Shown: piece after piece, positions 9,364 through 61,445 of the stretch
How the letters are laid out: every line of letters starts with the position of its first letter
How positions within the stretch are numbered: the stretch's first letter is position 1
Origin: a virus
DNA length: 64,000 bases
Reading direction: 5' to 3' (one strand)
Virus record (IMG/VR): IMGVR_UViG_3300012663_000801
Location: 32,955 to 96,954 of that record
The notes under the pieces: generated by a model
What the model was told of the DNA's origin: nothing
The model's input: the letters and a program-made list of their open reading frames with translations, nothing else
Database searches by the model: none
Program-made: the position numbers and the translations under genes

Positions 9364-10686
9364 TTATCTATTACTCATTAAATTCAATATAGCTTTTTTA
9401 TGGTTTGAAGGGAGCTTGAGAAATTCCTCCACTCCCGTTGCCCATAACTCATCATCATTTGCCATGCCATAGGAGTCTACCCACTTTACCAAATCTCTCA
9501 TTTCTTCGCGATATGGGGATTTGTCATTCCCTACCAACTTGTCTTCGGATTGGGGGAAATTTTTTTGAGTTAATGTATTTTCAAAAATATTATATACAAA
9601 ATTTATTATCATCATAACGATTCCATATCTATTATTATCTAATTCATCAAATTTATTACTAACTTCCGTATAAGAATCATCATTAGCGAATATAAAATTC
9701 TCGTTATGTTTTGTTTCACTTAATAGATAATTAGAAATGGATTCAAATTCTGATACCCAATCTTCTCCATCTTCCTTCGCCCACTTCCAATCACCCTCAT
9801 CCGCTTCCACTGAACGTTTTATATTCTTTATTAATTTTTCATAAAATAATTTTGTTAAGGCATTACTTAGATAATTGAGTTGTTTCTTATAAATTTTCAT
9901 ATCAACATACCAGAACTGTGATTTGGTTTGCATATCACTAATTATTTTTAATATTAATGCTCTAGTTTTGAATTTAAAATTATCTCTCCAAGAATTGATG
10001 TATGTTTTTTCATCTTCTTTCCATGGAGAATCGTCATCATTATATTTGTTTATAACGTATCCTTGGTAGATGTTTCTGACGATATACATCATTTCTCTGA
10101 CCACCTCATTCCATATTGTATCACTATAATTACGACCCAATAATTTTTCTGTTTGTTCAAAACTTTTAATTTTTGTTATGTGTTTAAATGGTTCTTTTTC
10201 TCTTTCTTTTTGTGCCACGGCGAAATTTGTTTTGTATTGGTTCAATAGAGTATTGTAGTATTCCTTTACTGCCATTTTGAATCCTTTGGAATTGTTGAAC
10301 ATCCATAGGTGCGCCCATTCATGGACTATAACCTTTATTAGATAATTTGGTTTGTTAATTTGATTCAATCCAACTGTCATGTATTTCCCTTTGCGGTGTG
10401 CATAACCCCCAACTCCTCCTCCTGAAACCCAATTTACTTCCTCTGATAAGTTTTTGATGAGAATGTTTGCATGCATGGAAGGAAAACCCATCTTGGTGAT
10501 TATCTTTCTTGCTTCCGTGCAAGCGTCCGTTATTTTTTCTTTTAATTCATTCATGCTCTCTACTTTATCCGCATCATCTTTAAAAAGATAAACAGTAAAC
10601 ATAGGTAACTTTGTGATGGGGATCACCTTTTTTGATTGGGAGAATTTTGCTTCTCTTATTAAAAAGTATTCTTTGAAAGATATCAT
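9364..10686 (-). CDS. Zincin-like metallopeptidase with capsid-targeting-like N-terminus
   Basis: VIVHEWAHLW (HExxH); distal SYGMANDDELWA; MISFKEYFLIRE; TAAATA-N5-ATG. Confidence 0.75.
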   Translation of the reverse strand: MISFKEYFLIREAKFSQSKKVIPITKLPMFTVYLFKDDADKVESMNELKEKITDACTEARKIITKMGFPSMHANILIKNLSEEVNWVSGGGVGGYAHRKGKYMTVGLNQINKPNYLIKVIVHEWAHLWMFNNSKGFKMAVKEYYNTLLNQYKTNFAVAQKEREKEPFKHITKIKSFEQTEKLLGRNYSDTIWNEVVREMMYIVRNIYQGYVINKYNDDDSPWKEDEKTYINSWRDNFKFKTRALILKIISDMQTKSQFWYVDMKIYKKQLNYLSNALTKLFYEKLIKNIKRSVEADEGDWKWAKEDGEDWVSEFESISNYLLSETKHNENFIFANDDSYTEVSNKFDELDNNRYGIVMMIINFVYNIFENTLTQKNFPQSEDKLVGNDKSPYREEMRDLVKWVDSYGMANDDELWATGVEEFLKLPSNHKKAILNLMSNR

Positions 10687-11028: not shown

Positions 11029-11105
11029 CGCGGGTTAGACAGGAGGTGGTTCCTGCCGGGTTTCATAAGCCTAGTACGTCGGTTCGACTCCGACACCCGC
11101 TACCA
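11029..11105 (+). tRNA. tRNA-Met(CAT), initiator-like
   Basis: CGCGGG acceptor with unpaired C1, TTCATAA loop, GGTTCGACTCC, encoded CCA. Confidence 0.85.
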
Positions 11106-11106
11106 A

Positions 11107-11181
11107 GCGTTCTTGATGTAATGGTTAACATGCCCTCCTTCCAAGTGGGTTACGAGAGTTCGAGTCTCTCAGAGCGCACCA
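11107..11181 (+). tRNA. tRNA-Gly(TCC)
   Basis: Cloverleaf, CTTCCAA loop, encoded CCA. Confidence 0.9.
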
Positions 11182-11196
11182 TTTTAAATCAATCGA

Positions 11197-11460
11197 ATGA
11201 GAATAACATATAAAGAAACAACAGAGTCCTTTTCACCTATTCCTCTTGTTTCCATCTTTTATGGAATATTTTATAAAGATGGTGTTGAATTTGTTCGTAT
11301 TAAGGATTCATTTGTATACGGTTTTAAAATGTATTATAAAAATGATGATGATATGAAAACTGAAATGAAAAGGGTTTTGTTTCATGCATTGAATGATCCT
11401 TCTTTGGAGGATGAATTTTGGAAAGTGTTCGAAGAAAGGTTCTTAAAAACTAGACTATAA
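11197..11460 (+). CDS. Hypothetical protein, 87 aa
   Basis: ORF between tRNA blocks. Confidence 0.65.
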   Translation: MRITYKETTESFSPIPLVSIFYGIFYKDGVEFVRIKDSFVYGFKMYYKNDDDMKTEMKRVLFHALNDPSLEDEFWKVFEERFLKTRL

Positions 11461-11528
11461 TGAGGGCATGTAAAAAATTGAAGAAAATTCTTGAAAAAAG
11501 TTTTGATATTGCTAAGTATTACTACAGC

Positions 11529-11591
11529 ATGAAATACCAGCAATATAATCAAAACAAACCAGCGACACCGATTGGGTGGCGGCGTGGATGA
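11529..11591 (+). CDS. Leader peptide MKYQQYNQNKPATPIGWRRG
   Basis: 20 codons; 3' end is complementary to the 5' arm of the downstream terminator. Confidence 0.75.
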   Translation: MKYQQYNQNKPATPIGWRRG

Positions 11592-11619
11592 TTCTATTGT
11601 AAATCATATTGAATCTTGC

Positions 11620-11654
11620 GCCCCATCTCTTCCAAAGATGGGGTTTTTTATTTT
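11620..11654 (+). terminator. Intrinsic terminator (attenuator) ahead of main tRNA block
   Basis: CCCCATCT-CTTCCAA-AGATGGGG followed by TTTTTTATTTT. Confidence 0.9.
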
Positions 11655-11727
11655 AGGGGTGAACGAAGCGACCTGAACAGCTAGAGAGTGGTGAAAGACT
11701 AATAGAGAATACGGTAATATATTTTTT

Positions 11728-11802
11728 GGGTTCATAATTCAATGGTAGAATAACTCACTTTTAATGAGTAAGCTGAAGGTTCGAGTCCTTCTGGACCCAC
11801 CA
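11728..11802 (+). tRNA. tRNA-Lys(TTT)
   Basis: ACTCA-CTTTTAA-TGAGT, T-arm, CCA. Confidence 0.95.
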
Positions 11803-11815
11803 TATTTTTTTTAAT

Positions 11816-11891
11816 GCTCCTGTCGTCTAAAGGTTAGGACAAAGGATTTTCAATCCTTAGATCGTGGGTTCAAGTCCCCGTGGGAGCACCA
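11816..11891 (+). tRNA. tRNA-Glu(TTC)
   Basis: AAGGA-TTTTCAA-TCCTT, CCA. Confidence 0.9.
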
Positions 11892-11901
11892 TTTTTTAAA
11901 T

Positions 11902-11988
11902 GCGTTAGCGGCGAAGTAGGTGAGTCGCGGCGGTCTGTAAAACCGCAGCCTTCGGGCTAAGTAGGTTCGAACCCTACCTGACGCACCA
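11902..11988 (+). tRNA. tRNA-Tyr(GTA)
   Basis: GCGGT-CTGTAAA-ACCGC, long variable arm, CCA. Confidence 0.95.
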
Positions 11989-11991
11989 TAT

Positions 11992-12067
11992 CTTGGCGTA
12001 GCGCAATTGGTAGCGCGGGTAGTTTGGGACTATCAGGTTGTAGGTTCGAGTCCTACCGTCGAGACCA
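11992..12067 (+). tRNA. tRNA-Pro(TGG)
   Basis: GGTAG-TTTGGGA-CTATC, C1-G72, CCA. Confidence 0.95.
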
Positions 12068-12077
12068 TTTTTTTCAT

Positions 12078-12154
12078 GGGCCATTAGTTCAGCTGGTAGA
12101 ACGTCTGATTTGCATTCAGAATGTCATGAGTTCGAGTCTCATATGTGTCCACCA
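12078..12154 (+). tRNA. tRNA-Ala(TGC), one-base bulge in acceptor stem
   Basis: TCTGA-TTTGCAT-TCAGA, G3:U70, CCA. Confidence 0.9.
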
Positions 12155-12158
12155 TAAT

Positions 12159-12232
12159 TGGGGGTTGGTGTAATGGTAGCACCGCAGATTTTGATTCTGT
12201 TAGCGAGGGTTCGACTCCCTCATCCCCTGCCA
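12159..12232 (+). tRNA. tRNA-Gln(TTG)
   Basis: GCAGA-TTTTGAT-TCTGT, G73, CCA. Confidence 0.95.
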
Positions 12233-12241
12233 ATTTTCAAA

Positions 12242-12317
12242 TCCCAAGTAGCACAGCGGTAGTTGCGTTCGACTGTTAATCGAAATGTCGGTGGTTCGAT
12301 CCCACCCTTGGGAGCCA
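12242..12317 (+). tRNA. tRNA-Asn(GTT)
   Basis: TTCGA-CTGTTAA-TCGAA, G73, CCA. Confidence 0.95.
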
Positions 12318-12325
12318 GATATAAA

Positions 12326-12399
12326 GGCCCGGTAGTTAAATGGTAGAACAGTAGATTTGTAACCTTCAGACGAGAGTTCGATTCTCTCTCGGGCCTCCA
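12326..12399 (+). tRNA. tRNA with Thr anticodon (TGT) on a Cys-like acceptor
   Basis: TTTGTAA loop; anticodon stem has 2 mismatches; G1-C72, G2-C71, C3-G70, U73. Confidence 0.7.
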
Positions 12400-12409
12400 T
12401 TATTCATAT

Positions 12410-12486
12410 CCTCCTATAGCTCAGTTGGTTAGAGCACTCGTTTGATAAATGAGAGGTCGTTAGTTCAAGTCTAACTGGGAGGACCA
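12410..12486 (+). tRNA. tRNA-Ile(GAT)
   Basis: CTCGT-TTGATAA-ATGAG, CCA. Confidence 0.9.
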
Positions 12487-12489
12487 CTT

Positions 12490-12816
12490 ATGACACTAAA
12501 TGAATACGAACAATTCGCACTCTCCACAGCAATATACGGAGAGGGCCAAAAAATAACATATCCAACTCTGGGACTTGCTGGTGAATCTGGGGAAGTTGCA
12601 GATAAAGTTAAGAAGGTTTTGAGGGATTATGATGGTGTTTTCACCGATGAACTCAAGCTTAATATTGCCAAAGAGATTGGTGATGTCCTCTGGTATATCA
12701 CGGCATTGTCAAGAGACTTGGGTTTCTCGCTAGAGGAAGTGGCCAAGATGAATGTTGATAAATTGGAATCCAGAAGACAACGAAATGTGATTTCTGGTTC
12801 CGGTGATGATCGATAA
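12490..12816 (+). CDS. mazG: MazG-like NTP pyrophosphohydrolase
   Basis: LGLAGESGEVADKVKK...KEIGDVLWY. Confidence 0.9.
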   Translation: MTLNEYEQFALSTAIYGEGQKITYPTLGLAGESGEVADKVKKVLRDYDGVFTDELKLNIAKEIGDVLWYITALSRDLGFSLEEVAKMNVDKLESRRQRNVISGSGDDR

Positions 12817-12818
12817 AT

Positions 12819-12912
12819 GGATCGGTATGATCGGGCTGGGCTGATGATTACGCACCGAAGTGTAATAGCTTGTAAAAGTCTTAGGGAAGTTCGAATCTTC
12901 CGCCATCCGCCA
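12819..12912 (+). tRNA. Aberrant tRNA-Ser-like RNA
   Basis: GGA acceptor with bulge, G73-CCA, GGAAG-TTCGAAT-CTTCC T-arm, long variable arm, non-standard anticodon loop containing CGA. Confidence 0.6.
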
Positions 12913-12932
12913 ATTTTATATTAAATAATACC

Positions 12933-13406
12933 ATGAGAACCTTTTTAGAATCTTTCTATGATATTCAGGAATTGAAACCAAATTCCAAATTGAAAGATAT
13001 CATCAAACATCCTTATCTTAAAGTCTTTCGTTCTTCGGCTCGTCCCAATAAGAATGATTATGTATCGGGTTCTCATGCTGGGACGAAACAACAAGCTTTG
13101 ATTCGGGCCGATTATATGATAAATGATGAAGGTAGATACGATACCTATTATTTGTATGAATTGATTATTCGTATTGAAAATGTGTATCCCGAATTATTAC
13201 CCGATGATGGGACTGATCATGGATACGGATTTGTCAAGGATTTGAATAATTATGATGTCGCCTTTTACAAAAATACGGGAGAAGGTGATATCAGAAACGA
13301 GAATCTTTCAATTATCATTATCAATCCTGATAGTGTCTTCGAATCCAAGATGGTTGAAGAGATCGATGGGGAATATTTGACCGCTATTCAGGATGAATTA
13401 TACTAA
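12933..13406 (+). CDS. Putative ADP-ribosyltransferase (polyvalent-protein ART type)
   Basis: VFRSS...GSHAGTKQQALIR...DVAFYKNTGEG...SIIIINP pattern; TAAATA-N5-ATG. Confidence 0.55.
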   Translation: MRTFLESFYDIQELKPNSKLKDIIKHPYLKVFRSSARPNKNDYVSGSHAGTKQQALIRADYMINDEGRYDTYYLYELIIRIENVYPELLPDDGTDHGYGFVKDLNNYDVAFYKNTGEGDIRNENLSIIIINPDSVFESKMVEEIDGEYLTAIQDELY

Positions 13407-13414
13407 ATAATGGA

Positions 13415-16321
13415 ATGAGAAGATTTCATGGATTGTATAAAAAGTTGATGGCGACATTATCTGAAGAGGTATGGCAACCATCGACTGTTATTGAGTTGGG
13501 GAATAAAAGAAAAAAATCAGATAGTGGATATTGCGAATATAACCCATTAATCAATAAATTTGCCATGGAAAATTCCGATAACTTGGCAATGGTATTTGCA
13601 TTTGTTTTCTATACTATTCAGACTGACTGGAACGTGGTTGTTGATAATTTTCCCCATTTCATAAAATGGTTCTATACAGAAGCAGTTAAGAAAAAAGGTA
13701 ATAAATTAATGGTTGATAGATCAGCTAAACCTCCGGGTATGGGTCATATGATGACATCCCCTAGTAAAAAATATAATGGGTTGGCTAGTGAAAGATTACA
13801 AAATTTATATGAAGTTTATGACAATAGACATAAAATATATGAAAATTTTGTTAAAAAAATTGATAATCCTAGAGAGTTATTCATCTATATTTTAAAAAAT
13901 ATAAAAGGCTTGGCAGCAGTAAAGGCTGGTTTCGTGGTTCAGTTGGTGACTGGTAGAATTGGTTGCATGGATAGTATAAATTCAAAAGTTTATACCGGAG
14001 ATATTACCGGATTCAATCCGAGTTCTAAAATTTCTAAAAATAAAGCAGGAGACTTTTCACCGAATACTTTAAAAAAAATCGACCAATATATTGAATATGT
14101 CGATCCTCTGAGTCAAATACTTTGGGATGATTGGTGTGAAATCGTTGAAAGTAAATTATTATATGCAATCCTAAAACCAAAGAAAGATGAAAAGGAAAGA
14201 GGTGAGCATAAAGTCATAGGAACCAGATTTAAAGATAACGATAATGTTATGACGCAAACATCGTATCTTTTAAATAAAAGAAAAGGAAACGCTGATAGTA
14301 TCGGAAAACACATTAAAAGATTGAATCAAGGTAAAGAAAAAGGTAAAGTTATATCTGGTGATCATTACAATGTTTTAAAGGACATAGAACAATACATGAG
14401 AAAAGAATCTTTCGATCAAGAATACGAGATGTTGATGCGTGAATATGTGGAAGATTTCGATCAAAAATGGACTAAAGCTGTTGACGATTCTGAAGAACTT
14501 AGAGTCGCACTTGATCTGATGCAGCAAATCAAATCAAAATTAAAGGGTGAGATTTATATTGTTGGTGGAGTTCCCCGTGATTTGCTTATGGGAAACGCGA
14601 TTGATGATGTGGATCTGGCTACCAACATTCCGGTTGAAGAGTTGGAGAAACATTTTGAATTGAGAAATATCTCCAAGAACGATTCACAACCAGTCTATGC
14701 TATTCTTTGGAAGGGATATGTGTATGATTTAGCGAAATTCAGAACAGACTCGGGTGACATCGGCAGACAAGCCAATGTTTCGACCGAGACAGATTCCTTT
14801 GAGAAAGATTCCGAGCGTAGGGATTTAACAATCAACTCCTTTGGATTGGACGAGAATGGAAAAATCGTGGATTATCAAGGTGGTCTCGATGATTTGAAAA
14901 ACAAAATCGTGCGTGCTGTCGGTGATGCCAAGAAAAGATTCTTGGAGGATGCGACGAGAATTCTTCGTGTTTTCCGTTTTGCCGCTAAAATGGATTTCGA
15001 AATTGAAGATAAAACCAAAAGAGCAGCAATTGAATTGAAACATTTGCTTCAAGATCCGAAGGCGATTTCCAAAGAAAGTATCTCAAAAGAATTTTACAAG
15101 TCTGCCAAGTCTGGTAGAACTCTCGCCAACTTCTTGAAGAAATTACAGGACACGAAAATCCTACATGATATCCTTCCTGAATTTACGGAGATGGAAGGTT
15201 TCGATCACGATCCAGAGCATCATCCTGAAGGTGAATCCCAAGTATTGGGACACATCTATGAGTGTTTGAATGCTTCCCCATACAAAGATCCAGTGATTAA
15301 TCTCGCAGTATTGTTCCACGATTTTGGCAAAGCCACTACAAGAGGACGAAAAGATAATGGATTCAGTAGCTATCATGGACACGAAGCTGCTGGTGTTCCT
15401 ATTGTCGAGAGAATATTCGAAAGATTGCGATTTGCCGAATTGTCTCAGCAAGATAAAAAGAACATCTTAGCGGCAGTGGATAAGCATATGCTTGTTCACA
15501 ATATCGATAAACTCAATATCAAAACGTTGACAAAGTTAATTCAAAATCCTGCATGGGAAACCATCAAAGCAGTTGGATATTGCGATGAAGCTTCTAGGGG
15601 ATCTGGTCTCTTCAATGAAAAAGAATTTTGGGACAAGATCAAAAGGGCTGAAGAAAAAGTTGCCAATATTGGAGGTTCCGAAGATGAAACCAGAAAGAGA
15701 CTCAAGCAATATTTCAGTGGTGATAAATTGATGAAATGGTTCCCAATTCTTGTCAAAGATAAATCAAAATTCAGAGAAATCACATCAGCACTTCAAGAAT
15801 ATACTTTAGAAGAATTGAATGCTGGTAGAGAACCGAATGAAGCGGAGATGAAGACGATTGTTTCTGGTATTCTGAAAGGAAATCAATTTAATGAGTGGGT
15901 TGCTATGTTTGAATCTTCTTTAAGAAAGAATGAAACCCATTTACCAGAAAATCCATTTGCTGTATTCGTGGTCCACCAATTTCCAAATGGTAAAATAGCG
16001 GCGACCACTAGACCAAAAGATAGAATGAAAGATGATGAAGGTTTGTCTTATGGACTTCCGGGTGGTAAGGTAGATCCCGGCGAAGATCCCATGGAAGCAG
16101 CTATCAGAGAATCAAAAGAAGAAGGTTGGAAGGTTTCTGGATTGACTCAAAAACATTCTGATATCGTTCAAGGTAAATTAGTGTGGTGGTATCACGCAAA
16201 ATCTGCTACTCCTTTACGGGAATACAAAGAAAAATATCGTGGTATTAAACCAATTCAAATTGGTATGGATCAATTAAAAGGATTTGGGAACGAAATCGCT
16301 ATTCCAAAATCATTGGAATAA
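13415..16321 (+). CDS. Fusion: HhH glycosylase-like domain + CCA-adding nucleotidyltransferase + HD phosphohydrolase + Nudix
   Basis: IKGLAAVKAGFVVQL..G..GCMDS; VGGVPRDLL..DDVDLAT, RRDLTINS, EDATRILR; HHPEG, LFHDFGK; Nudix box GGKVDPGEDPMEAAIRESKEEG. Confidence 0.9.
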   Translation: MRRFHGLYKKLMATLSEEVWQPSTVIELGNKRKKSDSGYCEYNPLINKFAMENSDNLAMVFAFVFYTIQTDWNVVVDNFPHFIKWFYTEAVKKKGNKLMVDRSAKPPGMGHMMTSPSKKYNGLASERLQNLYEVYDNRHKIYENFVKKIDNPRELFIYILKNIKGLAAVKAGFVVQLVTGRIGCMDSINSKVYTGDITGFNPSSKISKNKAGDFSPNTLKKIDQYIEYVDPLSQILWDDWCEIVESKLLYAILKPKKDEKERGEHKVIGTRFKDNDNVMTQTSYLLNKRKGNADSIGKHIKRLNQGKEKGKVISGDHYNVLKDIEQYMRKESFDQEYEMLMREYVEDFDQKWTKAVDDSEELRVALDLMQQIKSKLKGEIYIVGGVPRDLLMGNAIDDVDLATNIPVEELEKHFELRNISKNDSQPVYAILWKGYVYDLAKFRTDSGDIGRQANVSTETDSFEKDSERRDLTINSFGLDENGKIVDYQGGLDDLKNKIVRAVGDAKKRFLEDATRILRVFRFAAKMDFEIEDKTKRAAIELKHLLQDPKAISKESISKEFYKSAKSGRTLANFLKKLQDTKILHDILPEFTEMEGFDHDPEHHPEGESQVLGHIYECLNASPYKDPVINLAVLFHDFGKATTRGRKDNGFSSYHGHEAAGVPIVERIFERLRFAELSQQDKKNILAAVDKHMLVHNIDKLNIKTLTKLIQNPAWETIKAVGYCDEASRGSGLFNEKEFWDKIKRAEEKVANIGGSEDETRKRLKQYFSGDKLMKWFPILVKDKSKFREITSALQEYTLEELNAGREPNEAEMKTIVSGILKGNQFNEWVAMFESSLRKNETHLPENPFAVFVVHQFPNGKIAATTRPKDRMKDDEGLSYGLPGGKVDPGEDPMEAAIRESKEEGWKVSGLTQKHSDIVQGKLVWWYHAKSATPLREYKEKYRGIKPIQIGMDQLKGFGNEIAIPKSLE

Positions 16322-16557: not shown

Positions 16558-17379
16558 TTATTTAAGTTCGTGTAACAAAGGATCGCTTGATGTGATGCGA
16601 TGTTTCTTTCCTTCGTCATCCAAATAGATCACGGGATCGACGACAAAAATATTTCCATCATCATCCATCAATACGTTTTCATCGTGCATGTCTTCCACAC
16701 GAATCCCTTTTTCTTGATTAATGTAATCATGCTGGGTTCCCGGAATTTTTGAGTAACCCAAATTATTCATCAATTGTTCAACGTCTACAGGAGATGCGCC
16801 TTTAGTGGCACGAACATGTGGTTGTGAAATAACTGGCTGCAATTCGCCATGATTCATCACGAAACCTTCTAAAGCATAAGGAGCTTCAGGGAAAGCAGAA
16901 TTATGGAGTGCTAATCTATAAAAGAATTCTAAATATGTGGTGTGGTAGGAGAGATTATTCCGCTTGAACCATCTCTGGGATTCTTCATCGAAATATACAT
17001 TATTCTCTGCTTCCCCTTTTTCACCTTGCTGCTTCCATTTGCGATCAAATTCTTTGTTGTCCATCATTAGACCGACTTGTTCAGCCCAATGCTTCAGCCA
17101 TTTTTCTTCTACGGGTTTGACCCGTTTGGACATCAGATTTCTCGCAGCGACTTTTTTCTTGTAATCTTTTTCCGCTGCGAACTCTGGGATCGAATCATCT
17201 CGTATTGATTCATGGCTTCTGTAAGCGACAGCGGTGGCAGCTTTGAGCTTTTTTCCACCTCTTCCAGAATAGCCTTGTTCCGCTCCAGATGGGATTCTGT
17301 CAGGAGTGTATTTTTCATATTGTTCATAAATTATTCTTAAAAAATTTTCAAGATTTATCAAATCTTTCTGTTTAAACAT
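16558..17379 (-). CDS. Polyvalent-protein-type Ser/Thr/Tyr kinase
   Basis: GEAENNVY, LHNSAFPEAPYALEGF, VISQPHV, EDMHDENVL, VVDPVI. Confidence 0.8.
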   Translation of the reverse strand: MFKQKDLINLENFLRIIYEQYEKYTPDRIPSGAEQGYSGRGGKKLKAATAVAYRSHESIRDDSIPEFAAEKDYKKKVAARNLMSKRVKPVEEKWLKHWAEQVGLMMDNKEFDRKWKQQGEKGEAENNVYFDEESQRWFKRNNLSYHTTYLEFFYRLALHNSAFPEAPYALEGFVMNHGELQPVISQPHVRATKGASPVDVEQLMNNLGYSKIPGTQHDYINQEKGIRVEDMHDENVLMDDDGNIFVVDPVIYLDDEGKKHRITSSDPLLHELK

Positions 17380-18302: not shown

Positions 18303-18588
18303 GGTTCCAAATATCTTCTATTGTTTTAAATTTTGTTATCAGTAAATCCAAATTTTTGGAATGGAAATTACAGTCTATCGAAGTTTTTATAGTGTGTCTG
18401 TTGTTATTATTACAGAATGACAATTCGTAATTCAAATCACCCATTCCAGAAACGTGTTGAACTTCCATCACGAAAGTATCACACATGCCTGATGGAAGTG
18501 GACTTTGATTTTCAGAAAAAATAATATCCACTTCCGAATGATTTTTCGGAGCGTTCTCAATATATTCTTTAGGGTAAATTACTGTCAT
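18292..18588 (-). CDS. Hypothetical protein, 98 aa
   Basis: Overlaps both neighbours at start/stop. Confidence 0.65.
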   Translation of the reverse strand: MTVIYPKEYIENAPKNHSEVDIIFSENQSPLPSGMCDTFVMEVQHVSGMGDLNYELSFCNNNNRHTIKTSIDCNFHSKNLDLLITKFKTIEDIWNHER

Positions 18589-19187
18589 TATTTTAATTTC
18601 ATGTATACAACAACCGTCTCAGCATCCTTGTGGATCACGCCATCATCATCCACATAGTAGGAAATGCCATTGAAGATCGGATACGGCATGCTATCATCAT
18701 TTTTGTCAGTGTCAATCACAAAACCATTTCTACTGTAAAGTTTGAATAATTTAGTAGATTTGATATTACCGTTTTCATCTTGTTCAGCGAAACAATCCAA
18801 ACGTCTCGCACCATTTTTAATCGCACTCTTTACGATGGCATCGCCCGAAGATTCCCCAGCAGAGAAAACAGAAACCAATTCATCTCCCTCTTTGAGGCAA
18901 TATCCGCTGGTATTATTCGGACCAACGAAACATTCCATTTTTGAATATTCTTCTGGTTTGTAAATGGTGATATTATTTTTAATATCTTTGAAAAGCTCAG
19001 GATTATTGGATCGAGACTCATCAGCTTTCATGTAAGCATTGATGATTTTATAAAATGATCTCCAATCAACCTTTTTAAATTTTTCAGAATCGTCGGAGGT
19101 GAGTCTTCTACTGATTTTTAATTGCTCAGGTGATAATTTGCCGATGTCTGAGAATGCTTCCCAAAAGAATTGATAAAATGTCTTCAT
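18588..19187 (-). CDS. GNAT-like acetyltransferase
   Basis: ELVSVFS...GDAIVKSAIKNGARRLDCF...LFKLYSRNGF; MKTFYQFFWE; TAAATA-N5-ATG. Confidence 0.65.
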   Translation of the reverse strand: MKTFYQFFWEAFSDIGKLSPEQLKISRRLTSDDSEKFKKVDWRSFYKIINAYMKADESRSNNPELFKDIKNNITIYKPEEYSKMECFVGPNNTSGYCLKEGDELVSVFSAGESSGDAIVKSAIKNGARRLDCFAEQDENGNIKSTKLFKLYSRNGFVIDTDKNDDSMPYPIFNGISYYVDDDGVIHKDAETVVVYMKLK

Positions 19188-24841: not shown

Positions 24842-25486
24842 ATGAAAAGATGGGGATATCGAAATGAAGAAGAAGCTGAAACTAAAACCAATAATCTTCC
24901 AAACATTATTATAACATCTCCAAGTGAAGATCTGACTACAACTGGTTATGGTATAAGGGTTATAAATAATAAAATTTTATTTTACGCTGATATTGACGAA
25001 GGTTCTGTTTTGGAATTGAATCGCATTCTTCTTGAATTGGATTCCAAATTACAAAGTATCAAAACCATGGGATTTGATGATAATTTCGATCCAACCATTC
25101 ATTTACACATCAATACCCACGGTGGTGTCGTGTTTGCAGCCTTTTCCACCGTTGACACGATTCGTAGATTAAAATCAAAGGTCCACACATACGTGGATGG
25201 TAACGTCGCCTCTGCTGGCACTCTGATCAGTTGCATTGGTGTCAAGAGATACATGGGACAACATGCCCATTTACTGATCCATCAATTGAGTTCTGGTGTC
25301 TATGGTAAATTTTCTGAAATGGAAGACGAAATGGTCACGTGCAATAAATTGATGAAATTGCTAAAAGATTTTTATAAAAAGCACACAAAAGTTCCGATGA
25401 AAAAAATGGATGAACTCATGAAGCGTGACATTTGGTTGGATGCTCAAGAGTGCCTCGAATACGGAATAATTGACGAAATTATTTGA
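24842..25486 (+). CDS. clpP: ClpP-like protease
   Basis: INTHGG, VASAGT, LIHQLS, RDIWLDAQECLEYGIIDEI. Confidence 0.88.
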   Translation: MKRWGYRNEEEAETKTNNLPNIIITSPSEDLTTTGYGIRVINNKILFYADIDEGSVLELNRILLELDSKLQSIKTMGFDDNFDPTIHLHINTHGGVVFAAFSTVDTIRRLKSKVHTYVDGNVASAGTLISCIGVKRYMGQHAHLLIHQLSSGVYGKFSEMEDEMVTCNKLMKLLKDFYKKHTKVPMKKMDELMKRDIWLDAQECLEYGIIDEII

Positions 25487-32768: not shown

Positions 32769-33653
32769 TTATCTTTTGAATTCCATCGTTTGAAGGACAC
32801 TCAAATAAGGATCATTCTCCTCTACATCATTATTTAGCTTTTCTTCGATAATTTTTTCATTTTTCACGAAGTCGGGCTTATATTTGCGATTTTGGATAGC
32901 TTCTTCCTTAATCACTTCGAGTTGTTTCTTCTCTTGCTTTTCAAAGAGGCGAACCGTGTAATCGAAATTTTCTTGAATAAACTTCAGAGACTTGTCTCCA
33001 AGAGCCTTCTGAATGAAGTTCTTCTTGGTTTCGGGATATTTCGAAGTCTTAGCTTCGAGGAACAATTTGGTCTGAGTCTTGTTCTTCTCTTCAGTGATAA
33101 CTTTGAGATTGTTCTTCAATTGTGCATTTTCGTTACGAAGACCATCCAACTCGACTTTACCTTGCATGATAGCGTCCGAAACGGATTCCTTCATGACAGC
33201 AGAATCAATCGCTAACACTCTGCGAAGATTTTCCAAGACATTGTATGCAGTCTTGTTCTTAACCGCAGTTTCCATATCTTCTTTCGGGAAAGACTCATTC
33301 AAAAATTCATCCAAGAACACGCTAACAGACTCTGTGAGTTGCTTTTTGAATTTGAGCAAATCGACTTGTTGTTCTCTTTCGTATTTCTTGACAATTTTAA
33401 CAAGCTTGGCAGTCTTATCTCTGTCAAAAGCTTCCATCAATTTTTTCATTTTAATGGTGCGGTCCTTATCAACCGACTCCATAAGAGACTTCAATTTGAC
33501 GGCATACACTTCATCCTGTTCGAGCAATGCCGCTTCGACTGCGAGATCAACTTTGGCTTCCAAAGCTTCTTGGATAGCATTGACGGACTCATCGGAAAGA
33601 CCGAGACTTGCTTGAACGTCTTCAGAGAAAAGATTCTGTTTGTTTTTCTTCAT
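32769..33653 (-). CDS. gp22: Prohead core scaffolding protein
   Basis: Coiled-coil, E/K rich, directly upstream of gp23. Confidence 0.8.
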   Translation of the reverse strand: MKKNKQNLFSEDVQASLGLSDESVNAIQEALEAKVDLAVEAALLEQDEVYAVKLKSLMESVDKDRTIKMKKLMEAFDRDKTAKLVKIVKKYEREQQVDLLKFKKQLTESVSVFLDEFLNESFPKEDMETAVKNKTAYNVLENLRRVLAIDSAVMKESVSDAIMQGKVELDGLRNENAQLKNNLKVITEEKNKTQTKLFLEAKTSKYPETKKNFIQKALGDKSLKFIQENFDYTVRLFEKQEKKQLEVIKEEAIQNRKYKPDFVKNEKIIEEKLNNDVEENDPYLSVLQTMEFKR

Positions 33654-34141: not shown

Positions 34142-34804
34142 TTAGATACTATTGATAAATTTTATGATTTGTTGACGAAGATAAGATTCAACATCATGTT
34201 TCGGAAGAACTTTAAGAGACTTTTCAAAATTCTCATATACTTCTCCAAAGGAACCATCTTGATCAACCACGAATGTTTTACTTTCCAGAATACCATTGAC
34301 AAATGCTTTTGGATAAGATGGATCTGCGACAGCATCAATAGCAACCAAATGCATATTTTGGACTAAATTGTAATCACGATTTTCCATCAATTGACCCAGT
34401 GCGCGGGTGGACATCCCAACTTTCACACCATCGTTGATCAAAGCACGAAGAATCTGACCAGTTGGAGTGGATAAAACCTTTGCTTTACCAACGAAATAAT
34501 CATTAACTTCGGTCAATTCAGTGACCAAATGGCAAGCTCTTTCCAAATTAACGTCTGCACTTGTGGGGTGGTTCAATTCACCCATCGCTCTACCCGGAAG
34601 AACCATCTCATTGATGTATCTTTGAACTTCTGTTCTAGTTTCATCGAGACGATACATTCTCTTATTTTTATTAACGCTGTTGCATCCAATAAACGGTCCT
34701 TTCACATAAAGATTGGACGAACTGTTTCTATTAGATTGCTCCTCGATAACTTCAAAATTATCGAAAACATCGGGATTTTCTGCGATCAACTTTAATTTCA
34801 GCAT
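34142..34804 (-). CDS. gp21: Prohead protease
   Basis: NKNKRMY, AMGELNHP, GKAKVLSTPTG, GMSTRALG, DAVADPS. Confidence 0.95.
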   Translation of the reverse strand: MLKLKLIAENPDVFDNFEVIEEQSNRNSSSNLYVKGPFIGCNSVNKNKRMYRLDETRTEVQRYINEMVLPGRAMGELNHPTSADVNLERACHLVTELTEVNDYFVGKAKVLSTPTGQILRALINDGVKVGMSTRALGQLMENRDYNLVQNMHLVAIDAVADPSYPKAFVNGILESKTFVVDQDGSFGEVYENFEKSLKVLPKHDVESYLRQQIIKFINSI

Positions 34805-41503: not shown

Positions 41504-43327
41504 TTAAACTTCTGGTTCAGGAACTTCAGCAGTTTCTGCTGGTGGTGCTTCTGCTTCAGCACCCAGATCGGCTTCTCCACCACCAACGGTAGCACCTGCT
41601 CCTCCGAAGTCTGGGGGCATTCCACCACCACCGCCGCCACCACCTAAGTCGCCCATATCGCCACCTTCTCCACCCATGGCACCTTCAGCCTGTTGAGCAG
41701 CGATCTCCTTCCAATTGGGGCCATTGGATTTAATCTGTTCGATTTCGTATAAGAATTCAGCTTCGTTTCGCAAGAAGTGGCGATTAGCCAGAATATCCGA
41801 ATCTTTCCAATCCAAATACTTTTTCATGGCAAAGGTTTTGGAGACAAATTCGCTGTTTGTAATACTGGTGAAGGTATTGATTTTCAATTCGAGCTTCTGA
41901 CTTTCTCTCATGTCATAGAAATTCGTCGGAACGTTGAATTCTACGCGAATATTATCTTCGAAAAGATCATATTCATCGAACATGTCTTTGAATTTGAGAT
42001 GGGTGATGAAAGCTCGTTTAATACCTTGGGCAAATCTCTGTTGCTGGCGAATGATCATCTTCGCGAATTTAAGTTCTTCGCGAAGCATTTCGGTTCCGTC
42101 ACTATAACCTGTTTCATTATTGAGACGAGAAGTAGGAGCCTTCAAAGAACGATAAAGTTTCTTGATGAACCAATCGAGAACATCCATATTACCATCGGAT
42201 GGTTGACCACCGAATGTTTCAACAGTTGTCGCTTCTTGTCCCTGTCTTTTAGCAAACCAGAAAGAATCCAGAGTGGATTGAGGTGCATATTTCTTGACAA
42301 TATCGCTTTGATCCAAATCGAAAGTCTTAGTGGACCAATATTGCGATTGCAATTTTCTCAGATATGCTTCAGCTTGTGGGACGGGTAATCTACCCACATC
42401 AACATTGAACAAGAATCGAAGAGGAGCATGAACCATTCTATGGATCACAACACTGTCTTCAATCATCGAAAGTTGTCTGTAAGCTCTACGACAATTCTCA
42501 ATGAAAGGGATAATGAAATCTTTAGTCTCATTATATTGTCCGCTATTCACATACAGAACTTGGTTCTTTTCAAATGGAATGTATTCGTAGCGTTCAACTT
42601 TTCTATTGTCAACACTCGAAAAAATCGGCTTTTTGTAGATAAATGCCTTGACTAACATCGTTTGGATGTTGTCATAAACAGGATCGAATTGATCAGCGGG
42701 GAGATTCTTGATCGCGACAACACCTTGTTTGATATAATCCTCTTTGAGGATCAATTCGAAAAAGAGTTCACCTTCGACAAGAAATTGTCTAAAATAATTC
42801 CATCCATTATCTTCCATTTCCATCATGGAAATAAAACGAGAAAATTCTTTCTGTAAATCTTCCTTCTTCTCTGAATCCAAATCAGTATTTCGAAATTCCA
42901 ACGTCACGATTTCACCATTTTCATCAACGTTGATCGTTTCATCGCAAATTTCATCTAAGGCATCAGCAACCTCCGAATAAGCAGCAATCATGCGGTAGTC
43001 TCTAAGACGACCGGGCTTTTCCTCGGAAGCTTGAGAATACATCAAATCCGTGAAGGACTTGTCTTGGTAAATGGCTGAAAACGCTGTGCCATTCCAATCA
43101 TTATTGAGAGCTACCGAATTTTTCGCAATAGCTTCAGGTCTGCGTAATCCAATTTTCTGGAAATATTTATATTTCGTGTTTTTCGCCTCATCGGGTGATT
43201 GTTGGATGAAATTACCACGATTCTTCAAATAGGATTGCATATTCCTATCAAAAGTAGAGCCTTTACCATCACTCCCTTGATATTGTTTATTTGAAGATGG
43301 TGTTGTTGAACTGCCGATACCCGCCAT
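41504..43327 (-). CDS. gp20: Portal protein
   Basis: YSEVADALDEICDE, QLSMIEDSVVIHR, FNVDVGRLP, LYRSLKAPTSRL, REELKF. Confidence 0.96.
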   Translation of the reverse strand: MAGIGSSTTPSSNKQYQGSDGKGSTFDRNMQSYLKNRGNFIQQSPDEAKNTKYKYFQKIGLRRPEAIAKNSVALNNDWNGTAFSAIYQDKSFTDLMYSQASEEKPGRLRDYRMIAAYSEVADALDEICDETINVDENGEIVTLEFRNTDLDSEKKEDLQKEFSRFISMMEMEDNGWNYFRQFLVEGELFFELILKEDYIKQGVVAIKNLPADQFDPVYDNIQTMLVKAFIYKKPIFSSVDNRKVERYEYIPFEKNQVLYVNSGQYNETKDFIIPFIENCRRAYRQLSMIEDSVVIHRMVHAPLRFLFNVDVGRLPVPQAEAYLRKLQSQYWSTKTFDLDQSDIVKKYAPQSTLDSFWFAKRQGQEATTVETFGGQPSDGNMDVLDWFIKKLYRSLKAPTSRLNNETGYSDGTEMLREELKFAKMIIRQQQRFAQGIKRAFITHLKFKDMFDEYDLFEDNIRVEFNVPTNFYDMRESQKLELKINTFTSITNSEFVSKTFAMKKYLDWKDSDILANRHFLRNEAEFLYEIEQIKSNGPNWKEIAAQQAEGAMGGEGGDMGDLGGGGGGGGMPPDFGGAGATVGGGEADLGAEAEAPPAETAEVPEPEV

Positions 43328-60481: not shown

Positions 60482-60994
60482 TTATCTTCTAGGTTTAGCA
60501 GATTCATCCCAATATTCGTCTCCACCATTTCCGTCTTTGATAAATACATCACTTCTAGGTTTAATGACCCAATCAAAGGAATCTTTGTCTTTATCAAAAA
60601 GAACAATTGCTTGGGGATATCTAAATTTTTTACCGGGAACTGTATCACCTGTCGGGGTGACACCTTTTTGCGCAACCTTAACCACATAGTGTTGCCCCTT
60701 TGGGGTATTTTTACCCAGCTTGATATTTTCATCTGGAATCGGAACTATACCTTGCTCATCCATCCAATCCAAAATCCGTTCTTGTATTGTCTGTCCTGCT
60801 TGTTTTATTCTTTGTGTAGCACCTCTAACTCCTTTGACAATATTGCCAATTTGAGATGATGTATTAGGAGCGATCACACTCGCCACTTCTTTAGCACCTT
60901 GAATGACTTTTTTACCAAGTCTACCAATTTTGCTATTTTTAAAGGTATCCCAAAACCCTTCTTCCAATAATTCTTTTTGTGAAAACTTATACAT
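60482..60994 (-). CDS. Hypothetical protein with LLEEG cleavage-like N-terminus
   Basis: MYKFSQKELLEEGFWD. Confidence 0.75.
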   Translation of the reverse strand: MYKFSQKELLEEGFWDTFKNSKIGRLGKKVIQGAKEVASVIAPNTSSQIGNIVKGVRGATQRIKQAGQTIQERILDWMDEQGIVPIPDENIKLGKNTPKGQHYVVKVAQKGVTPTGDTVPGKKFRYPQAIVLFDKDKDSFDWVIKPRSDVFIKDGNGGDEYWDESAKPRR

Positions 60995-61445
60995 TGACTG
61001 ATAATTGTTTGTCGGCTACGTTGTTTAATGCCACATCGATCAGAGCGTCCAGTTCATTTTTGATGAAGTCTTTTCCAATTAAAACCTTGTGGTCATTGGT
61101 AGATCGATTACTGATGGAAAAGGGGATGCTTTTAAATTTCTTATCACCTATGATGCAATCGAAAAGACAAACTGGTCTTTCGACAGTATTACCCTCTCCA
61201 ATATTAATTACGATAGTATCTTTGACTGATTTTTCTAATCTCATGGAATTTATGGTTGTGAATCTTACTATTTTCTCGCCTGTCTTTTTGTCTTTTCCAA
61301 ATTCAACATCTTCTCCGTGTAAAACATTGTAAGCCCCGTTTCCGGTATCCAATTTGGCGGAAATAGTCCCGACACCATCAATAATGATGTCTTCCACTAA
61401 TCCAAATATATTTTTCTCCACAAAGAATTGTTTGAAATTTGTCAT
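60987..61445 (-). CDS. Retropepsin-like (RimK-associated type) protease
   Basis: AKLDTGNGA, ERPV, NRS....VLIGKDFI; MTNFKQFFVE. Confidence 0.85.
   Translation of the reverse strand: MTNFKQFFVEKNIFGLVEDIIIDGVGTISAKLDTGNGAYNVLHGEDVEFGKDKKTGEKIVRFTTINSMRLEKSVKDTIVINIGEGNTVERPVCLFDCIIGDKKFKSIPFSISNRSTNDHKVLIGKDFIKNELDALIDVALNNVADKQLSVNV

Follow-up and report, generated by a model that had tools for sequence, protein, structure and literature searches.

The window analysed here is a stretch of 64,000 nucleotides (positions 32,955 to 96,954) of the IMG/VR virus record IMGVR_UViG_3300012663_000801, a record of 96,954 bp for which CheckV estimates a completeness of 71%. Positions 13415-16321 (+) of this window are occupied by a single uninterrupted open reading frame of 968 codons with all catalytic motifs intact. 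Along the chain of 968 amino acids (aa) lie four catalytic domains: an HhH-GPD fold, a class II nucleotidyltransferase, an HD phosphohydrolase and a Nudix hydrolase. This four-domain architecture, the HhH-glycosylase-like N-terminal domain included, had been proposed in an earlier note made from the letters of the window, and it is confirmed by Pfam and by fold comparison. The protein combines a probable tRNA-end repair enzyme with features reminiscent of T4-type head proteins, and it may be cargo of the phage capsid.

The centre of the chain consists of the head, neck and body of a class II nucleotidyltransferase of the CCA-adding type (residues 347-595; 14453-15199, +; PF01743, PF12627), followed by the HD phosphohydrolase region, together with the helices at the C-terminal end of the CCA module (residues 596-820; 15200-15874, +; H..HDFGK..GHE..D). 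The Pfam PolyA_pol head (PF01743) spans residues 380-500 over the full length of the domain (E 1e-24), while the match to PolyA_pol_RNAbd (PF12627) at 527-592 is weak. The HD model of Pfam matches residues 628-697 with 25.7 bits, against a cut-off of 22, and the metal-binding pattern H...HD...H...D can be read in the translation as GHIYECL, LFHDFGK, YHGHE and YCDEAS. PHROG 2244, a tRNA nucleotidyltransferase, matches the core with an E-value of 5e-61. In NCBIfam, the CCA models reach 159 and 142 bits and the PcnB models 118 and 82 bits; every NCBIfam score for the core falls under the equivalog cut-off, so that exact equivalog membership is not shown by score. CCA-adding enzymes are also the best relatives in the PDB (1miv, 108 bits), compared with 71 bits for poly(A) polymerases. 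Alignment to the CCA enzyme of B. stearothermophilus, 1miv, shows IVGGVPRD..DDVDLAT and ERRDLTIN, which represent the GGxxRD..DxD and RRD motifs, and the EDxxR template motif is found where FLEDATRILR aligns with FREDALRMMR of 1miv. Judged by these motifs and scores, the core is a class II nucleotidyltransferase that is closest to CCA-adding enzymes.

In its succession of motifs (GGxxRD/DxD, RRD, EDxxR and then an HD domain with H..HD..H..D), the core is reminiscent of the multifunctional CCA addition/repair enzyme of the E. coli type, and the corresponding model, NF008137 ("multifunctional CCA addition/repair protein"), aligns over residues 379-711. However, the phage protein scores 142 bits against an equivalog cut-off of 451, and it differs from the E. 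coli-type enzyme by two added catalytic modules, by a leader of some 35 residues at its N-terminus and by a tail with the conserved sequence QFNEW.

The N-terminal module (residues 18-330; 13466-14404, +) is an Ogg2-like HhH-GPD domain of the glycosylase fold, as seen in an AlphaFold model and by structure comparison. Residues 1-345 are without a sequence match in Pfam, PHROGs or the PDB, whether searched as a single sequence or as a 70-sequence profile, and the domain is therefore identified through fold comparison only. Its model has a predicted local confidence (pLDDT) of 89.9 and a pTM of 0.89. VIA-align gives Tm1821 Ogg (3n0u_A), an 8-oxoguanine glycosylase of Thermotoga, as the best match, with Z 12.6, 189 of 209 residues aligned and a root-mean-square deviation of 3.5, and Foldseek ranks MjOgg first, with Tm1821 next. 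All 22 structural matches at Z >= 5 are HhH-GPD proteins (EndoIII, OGG1, Mag1, MutY, AlkA, AGOG and the queuine salvage enzyme). The "HhH glycosylase-like" label that had been given to this part of the protein is thus confirmed as a fold, which is helical and two-lobed and includes a helix-hairpin-helix.

Eight positions are invariant in the alignment of 70 homologs (K170, F173, Q176, G180, G183, C184, D186 and N189), and so is the motif G-x-x-G-C-x-D-S-x-N. In the model, K170 opens the second hairpin helix (168-179), which is followed by a Gly-rich loop, by D186 and by a helix at 187-190. K170 and D186 are spaced by 16 residues, K120 and D138 of EndoIII by 18. Judged by this spacing and by the positions in the model, the layout of K170 and D186 is presumably that of bifunctional glycosylase/lyases. 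The likeness to the Ogg2 glycosylases Tm1821 and MjOgg concerns the fold and the helix-hairpin-helix and, presumably, the Gly-rich loop, the invariant Asp and the invariant Lys that starts the second helix, as in bifunctional glycosylase/lyases. In contrast, sequence identity to these enzymes is 14% or less, and the phage domain has an additional C-terminal part of about 80 residues with a conserved His317.

An exhaustive HMMER search recovers 249 homologs of the N-terminal domain at E <= 0.001, most of which are stand-alone proteins of 200-390 aa. None of the 249 has a Pfam model for this region, and in a Pfam scan of the longer homologs Nudix is the sole informative partner domain. Through this locus, a large family of Ogg2-like HhH-GPD proteins of phages comes into view for which current model libraries have no description. 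The stand-alone homologs of many other phages begin with M-x-x-F-x-x-W/Y...E-E. The family as a whole is almost entirely phage-borne, and most of its members carry an N-terminal leader of this kind, M-x-x-F-x-x-W/Y...EE.

The C-terminal module (residues 846-968; 15950-16321, +, stop codon included) is a Nudix hydrolase with the Nudix box GGKVDPGEDPMEAAIRESKEEGW. Pfam NUDIX matches residues 849-904 with 31.7 bits against a cut-off of 21.1. Compared with the consensus GX5EX7REUXEEXGU, the box reads GKVDPGE-DPMEAAI-RESKEE-GW, in which one residue is deleted after EE and the catalytic RE..EE is kept. Relatives in the PDB are generic (RppH and pyrophosphatases of Ap4A and ADP-ribose, E >= 0.002); an assignment to a subfamily was attempted, and the best E-value of 0.002 is too weak for it. 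The same module is found N-terminal to the CCA enzyme in four relatives (P0014, P0015, P0017 and P0022). Outside the CCA fusions, the nearest relatives of the Nudix module share their multidomain chains with a phosphoesterase of the 2H-SAK type and with a P-loop kinase (P0029). 2H phosphoesterases and P-loop kinases are typical partners in RNA-end healing.

The junctions between these modules are informative. The chain starts with the leader MRRFHGLYKKLMATLSE (residues 1-17; 13415-13465, +), which resembles the T4 capsid-targeting sequence (CTS) and ends in L-S-E. This leader carries F4, Y8 and the L-S-E at 15-17, and it is longer than the T4 type of about 10 residues. It is also five residues longer than that of its relatives: MRRFHGLYKKLMATLSE is followed by EVWQP here, MRSFNKLYKELME by VWSP there. 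Homology to leaderless forms of the N-terminal domain starts at residue 17-19. The linker between the first two modules, ESFDQEYEMLMREYVE (residues 331-346; 14405-14452, +), matches the very start of stand-alone CCA genes. In nine related loci (L003-L011), stand-alone CCA genes start with MKKFHKLYHQLMREYVEDFDQKW, that is, M-[EIK]-[RK]-F-H-K-L-Y-[HR]-[QR]-L-M-R-E-Y-V-E-D-F-D-[EQ]-K-W, and K-E-S-F-D-Q-E-Y-E-M-L-M-R-E-Y-V-E-D-F-D-Q-K-W of the fusion aligns with this residue for residue. Because of this alignment, linker 1 is, by sequence, the retained N-terminal leader of a stand-alone CCA gene. In cultured phages of Vibrio and Sinorhizobium, the CCA enzymes carry no such leader and begin at the catalytic strand itself.

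The second linker (residues 821-845; 15875-15949, +) is composed of the conserved C-terminal tail of the CCA enzyme (GILKGNQFNEW...) and a spacer ending in L-P-E845. Stand-alone CCA proteins terminate in NQFNEWYNYYQKN, a GILKxNQFNEW tail followed by the stop codon; in the fusion, this tail is extended by the spacer, with H-L-P-E845 directly before the Nudix module. In all Nudix relatives the homology breakpoint lies at residue 845. Where the Nudix module comes first in a relative, a leader precedes it (MNKFDKLYKELMESYDE, followed by SPFAVF). Two linker peptides had been quoted earlier as resembling targeting peptides, and both are present (residues 331-343 and 830-840). The first does resemble one, being homologous to the stand-alone CCA leader of the nine related loci, whereas the second belongs to the CCA tail and spacer and includes no Nudix leader.

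The distribution of L/I-x-E, the kind of site that is cut by the prohead protease of T4, is partly in line with the junctions. In T4, an Asp at this site prevents processing while targeting is retained. The 968 residues contain 14 [LI]xE sites, two of which (E17 and E845) end exactly at module starts, for which the probability by chance is estimated at about 0.006. In nearly all relatives, the CCA core has an [LIM]-x-E in front of it. A leader matrix derived from unrelated short tags of the MKTF type has its top window of the whole protein in linker 1. In this genome, the association between a loose leader pattern and a late-promoter-like element, described below, has a Fisher p of 0.04. F-x-x-L-Y-x-x-L-M was considered as a genome-wide tag and rejected, as the strict regular expression matched only this protein in the genome. 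In the full-length AlphaFold model both linkers have a pLDDT below 50, compared with 85-97 for the CCA/HD core. Because the alignment is thin for the other modules, this model is confident for the CCA/HD core only, and it says little on contacts between domains.

Comparison with related loci reveals an extensive shuffling of these units. The HhH-GPD, CCA and Nudix modules are found in any order relative to one another, and homology always breaks off at the same residues. HhH-GPD and CCA are combined without Nudix in P0003-P0007, P0010, P0011 and L002; CCA is followed by HhH-GPD in P0013 and P0016; Nudix is followed by CCA in P0014, P0015 and P0017; the order is HhH-GPD, Nudix, CCA in P0022; and in P0008 the CCA module is followed by an extra module and then by Nudix. 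In addition, CCA is fused to GNAT in P0019 and to a weak ART-PolyVal-like domain in P0024. The stand-alone CCA/HD gene (about 506 aa) is found in nine related IMG/VR loci, on contigs of up to 207 kb. In three of these (L006-L008), the HhH-GPD homolog is a separate, tagged, adjacent gene in divergent orientation to the CCA gene, and further leader-tagged genes surround the CCA gene in related loci. Duplicated leader pieces flank inserted modules in P0014, P0018, P0012 and P0022, for example LMESYDE before a Nudix module and NESYEEDF after it; a second example is MREYVEDFDQ, the module, and then ...EQYVEDFDQKW. These duplications suggest that recombination inside leader-coding DNA drives the shuffling of modules. 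Cargo in this lineage would evolve through the joining, separation and reordering of leader-tagged genes at the leader, which remains at the join as a likely protease site.

The phage is uncultured and T4-like, and its head genes are of the T4 type. Pfam finds Gp23, Portal_T4 and Peptidase_S77, together with a gp15-like protein; identity between the capsid protein and the gp23 of cyanophages is as low as about 32%. The Peptidase_S77 gene (34142-34804, -; PF03420, E 5.5e-28) encodes a gp21-type prohead serine protease and is the candidate processing enzyme. When it is aligned to T4 gp21, the ELNHP (His) and Ser motifs are kept, and I-A-E9 stands where T4 has L-I-E9. The capsid maturation site could not be located by alignment to T4 gp23, since L-T-E65 of T4 aligns to S-L-Q-P. 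A ClpP-family protease gene at 24842-25486 (+) has the same late-promoter-like element and is present besides the gp21-type protease gene.

This element, CTAAATAAT-N3-ATG, has its TAAATA core at 13404-13409 (+), at -11 from the start codon of the fusion gene. The form [CT]TAAATAAT-N3-ATG is found at a fixed -11 before about 22 genes (window positions 9364-63776), where about 0.1 would be expected by chance. It is common to the scaffold, prohead protease, portal, adaptor and baseplate genes and to most head genes (for example, 32769-33653, -, and 41504-43327, -), and it also precedes the fusion gene, its tagged neighbours and a Kinase-PolyVal gene. The late promoter of T4 is TATAAATA, which the element resembles. 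Late expression of the fusion gene is thereby suggested. With the element so near to the ATG, the late mRNAs would be leaderless or nearly leaderless.

Several neighbours have N-termini close to the T4 CTS, which is MKTYQEFIAE. A presumably late gene at 18588-19187 (-), with TAAATAAT at -11, starts with MKTFYQFFWE, a near copy of it, and a gene at 60987-61445 (-) starts with MTNFKQFFVE, a close fit. The gene at 9364-10686 (-) starts with MISFKEYFLIRE. Directly upstream lies a tagged, presumably late gene of 157 aa (12933-13406, +) that starts with MRTFLESFYDIQE and adjoins the CCA gene also in L002, L007, L010 and L011. On the other side, the fusion gene faces a convergent gene of Kinase-PolyVal, a kinase family of polyvalent proteins (16558-17379, -; PF18762, E 5e-36; TAAATAAT at -11). 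In T4, residues 4 and 7 of the CTS serve in targeting and residues 8 and 10 in processing, and gp21 cuts after L/I-x-E (PMC9026906).

The tRNA genes bear on the role of the CCA/HD enzyme. A block of 11 tRNA genes lies at 11029-12486 (+), as found by ARAGORN and Rfam, and reading of their 3' ends shows that all of them encode CCA. In the whole contig, CCA is encoded by 12 of 14 tRNA genes; those without it are tRNA-Ile(TAT) and an ARAGORN "Leu(CAA)" call, at contig positions 26867-26941 and 27821-27902, upstream of the window. The earlier statement that all phage tRNA genes encode CCA therefore holds for the window, with 11 of 11, but not for the contig. Since the tRNA genes of the window all encode CCA, repair rather than maturation is the more likely role of the CCA/HD enzyme. 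The claim that the role is not maturation is too strict, as the enzyme may also mature the one or two tRNAs of the contig without CCA. CCA-adding enzymes have been listed among the RNA-repair functions of large phages (PMC7824862).

The reading of the 968-aa protein that these features favour is that of a late, capsid-targeted cargo polyprotein, which the prohead protease would cut and which would leave the capsid together with the DNA. We consider the odds of this about even. Three genes of a variable island that codes for internal head proteins, each with a capsid-targeting leader of the T4 type, could have fused in frame to give it. The leader MRRFHGLYKKLMATLSE would direct all 968 aa to the prohead and into its scaffolding core, and the gp21-type protease would cut after Glu: at L-S-E17, around M-R-E343 or Y-V-E346, and at L-P-E845. 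This would yield three enzymes, with masses of about 37 kDa (Ogg2-like HhH-GPD), about 58 kDa (CCA-adding/HD) and about 14 kDa (Nudix), all of which would be ejected with the DNA. In the new host, the HD domain could remove 2',3'-cyclic or 2'/3' phosphates from tRNA 3' ends, the nucleotidyltransferase could rebuild CCA, and the Nudix enzyme could remove a diphosphate-linked group, for example an ADP-ribose derivative or a 3'-pyrophosphate, judging from the activities of the respective families. The tRNA acceptor ends would then stay usable before the translation of any phage gene. The possible cleavage of a polyprotein, already raised in the earlier note, fits the context of a gp21-type protease, a late-promoter-like element, CTS-like neighbours and an L-x-E at two module starts.

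A number of points weigh against this interpretation. The h-x-E motif is short and common, and the other 12 [LI]xE sites lie inside folded domains, while junction 1 has M-R-E or Y-V-E, which is not a strict L/I-x-E. The matrix that singles out linker 1 scores the protein's own leader and linker 2 low, and about 0.14 hits of the strength of linker 1 are expected per protein of 968 aa. The enrichment of the loose leader pattern in this genome is modest (11 of 125 N-termini, 4.8-fold). T4 capsid-targeting sequences work at N-termini, and the copy in linker 1 is internal. The capsid protein does not keep the cleavage site of T4 gp23 where the two align, so that the specificity of T4 gp21, P3 preference included, can be carried over to this protease only tentatively. 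Late expression is something that we infer from the motif by itself. As to function, the enzyme may also take part in ordinary tRNA maturation, for one or two tRNAs of the phage.

The proposed cargo is best compared with IPI, IPII, IPIII and Alt of T4, which have a CTS and undergo processing by gp21. The phage shares with T4 a T4-type capsid, portal, scaffold region and Peptidase_S77 protease, a late-promoter-like element, a variable island of otherwise unrelated proteins and, in the neighbours, near copies of MKTYQEFIAE. Probably common to both is also a short amphipathic N-terminal leader with an aromatic residue at 4, another at 7 or 8, and an h-x-E. In contrast to the T4 proteins, the cargo would be an enzyme chain of 968 aa with a leader-derived peptide at an internal junction. 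Moreover, the leader is a longer variant (F-x-x-L-Y-x-x-L-M...L-S-E), and CCA/HD, Nudix and HhH-GPD enzymes are not known as head proteins of T4.

A second group to be considered is that of the polyvalent proteins, which are encoded by phages and by conjugative elements (Iyer, Burroughs, Anand, de Souza and Aravind 2017; PMC5512222). As in these, at least two unrelated effector domains are joined in one chain, in an order that varies among relatives; delivery with the DNA is predicted; and the neighbourhood and relatives include a Kinase-PolyVal gene and fusions to GNAT and ART-PolyVal-like domains. On the other hand, CCA-adding enzymes are mentioned 0 times in PMC5512222, and Pfam finds no MuF, zincin-like MPTase, ArdC-N, SNF2 or other domain that is a hallmark of this group in the 968-aa chain. 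Instead of MuF, zincin or another hallmark peptidase within the chain, it is the prohead protease that is proposed to process the leader-derived sites. Phage Nudix and ART proteins, for their part, are predicted to be packaged in virions in many cases, and Nudix proteins have been linked to ADP-ribose derivatives and to RNA repair (PMC9503650). Nudix proteins associated with the virions of myoviruses (Iyer et al. 2022, PMC9503650) likewise occur among late or virion genes and are predicted to be packaged and injected, but here the Nudix domain is fused to a CCA/HD enzyme and not to MuF, portal or protease. The T4 CTS, gp21 processing, variable internal-protein loci and polyvalent proteins (PMC5512222) are already known; no report of a capsid-tagged CCA-adding enzyme was found in the literature searched.

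Repair of tRNA by phages is usually viewed as a function that is expressed after infection. A CCA-adding/HD enzyme with the signatures of T4 head cargo suggests that ready-made repair enzymes could be delivered together with the DNA, which would matter against defences that hit tRNA and block translation before phage gene expression. A role against tRNA 3'-end toxins would be coherent with this, as we infer from the combination of domains. In its most complete form, which we regard as unlikely, the capsid would be preloaded with a complete healing kit for tRNA 3' ends, in which Nudix clears a diphosphate-linked block, for example a 3'-pyrophosphate of the toxSAS/CapRel type or an ADP-ribose adduct, HD the 2'/3' phosphate that is left, and the nucleotidyltransferase rebuilds CCA. 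Delivered as protein, such a kit would work even after host defences have stopped translation through tRNA-end damage. If true, it would solve the inability of the phage to translate repair genes once the tRNAs are disabled.

Alternatively, the protein could be an uncleaved, cytoplasmic, multifunctional enzyme that, as a single chain, maintains phage and host tRNA 3' ends late in infection, its leader-like peptides being inherited linkers or helices without a targeting role. This seems possible, if somewhat doubtful. The gene lies 0.9 kb from the tRNA block, multifunctional CCA/HD enzymes are known to act as single chains and NF008137 matches the core, and the Nudix relatives that sit with 2H phosphoesterase and P-loop kinase domains of RNA-end healing (P0029) would also fit such an enzyme. 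That HhH-GPD, CCA and Nudix modules are fused or lie side by side again and again, in both orders, could mean functional coupling and not co-packaging. However, the free permutation of the modules and the low-confidence linkers argue against a fixed geometry between domains. Furthermore, the leader is absent from the CCA enzymes of other phages, yet it is conserved here at N-termini and junctions; the promoter-like element is common to this gene and to structural genes; and neighbours resembling the T4 CTS and a polyvalent-family kinase are part of the same island.

It could also be supposed that the nucleotidyltransferase is an effector, a poly(A) polymerase or another tailing enzyme, which would enter the cell as protein or be made there and mark host RNAs for decay. 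The Nudix domain would then decap or de-pyrophosphorylate 5' ends, and the glycosylase-like domain would attack host nucleic acid. The name of the Pfam head domain (PolyA_pol) and the 118 bits of the PcnB subfamily model point in this direction, as does an RNA pyrophosphohydrolase as the nearest Nudix match in the PDB, and Pol-beta nucleotidyltransferases are common effectors in polyvalent proteins (PMC5512222). We nevertheless find this explanation improbable, as CCA models (159 and 142 against 118 and 82 bits) and CCA structures (108 against 71 bits) outscore those of poly(A) polymerases, the EDxxR template motif is present and the HD domain is intact, which is also the case in the repair enzyme of the E. 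coli type, and PHROG 2244 identifies a tRNA nucleotidyltransferase at E 5e-61.

Finally, the several relatives that keep the modules as separate adjacent genes might raise the thought that the fusion arose from faulty assembly or sequencing, or that neighbouring genes have fused into a decaying pseudogene, but this is effectively refuted by 968 open codons with complete catalytic motifs, by a 90% cluster of five member sequences whose representative is 99% identical and likewise 968 aa long, and by HhH-GPD and CCA fusions of 64-73% identity on many independent contigs (up to 198 kb). Assembly error, which the earlier note had named as an alternative, is excluded on these grounds. By DNA, no close relatives were found among cultured phages; by protein, 474 phage records match the fusion in the CCA core only, and 0 of them cover 80% of the query.

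Some minor features of the surroundings may be added. A MazG pyrophosphohydrolase gene (12490-12816, +) directly follows the tRNA block. Between this gene and the open reading frame that starts at 12933 lies a tRNA-like element of about 100 nucleotides (12817-12921, +), with a T-arm GGGAAGTTCGAATCTTCC and a 3' end ...CCATCCGCCA. It is unconfirmed as a tRNA: neither ARAGORN nor Rfam calls it, and in folding energy it does not surpass shuffled sequences (z -0.33). The GC content amounts to 0.49-0.57 at about 2-10 kb of the window, compared with 0.31-0.41 elsewhere.

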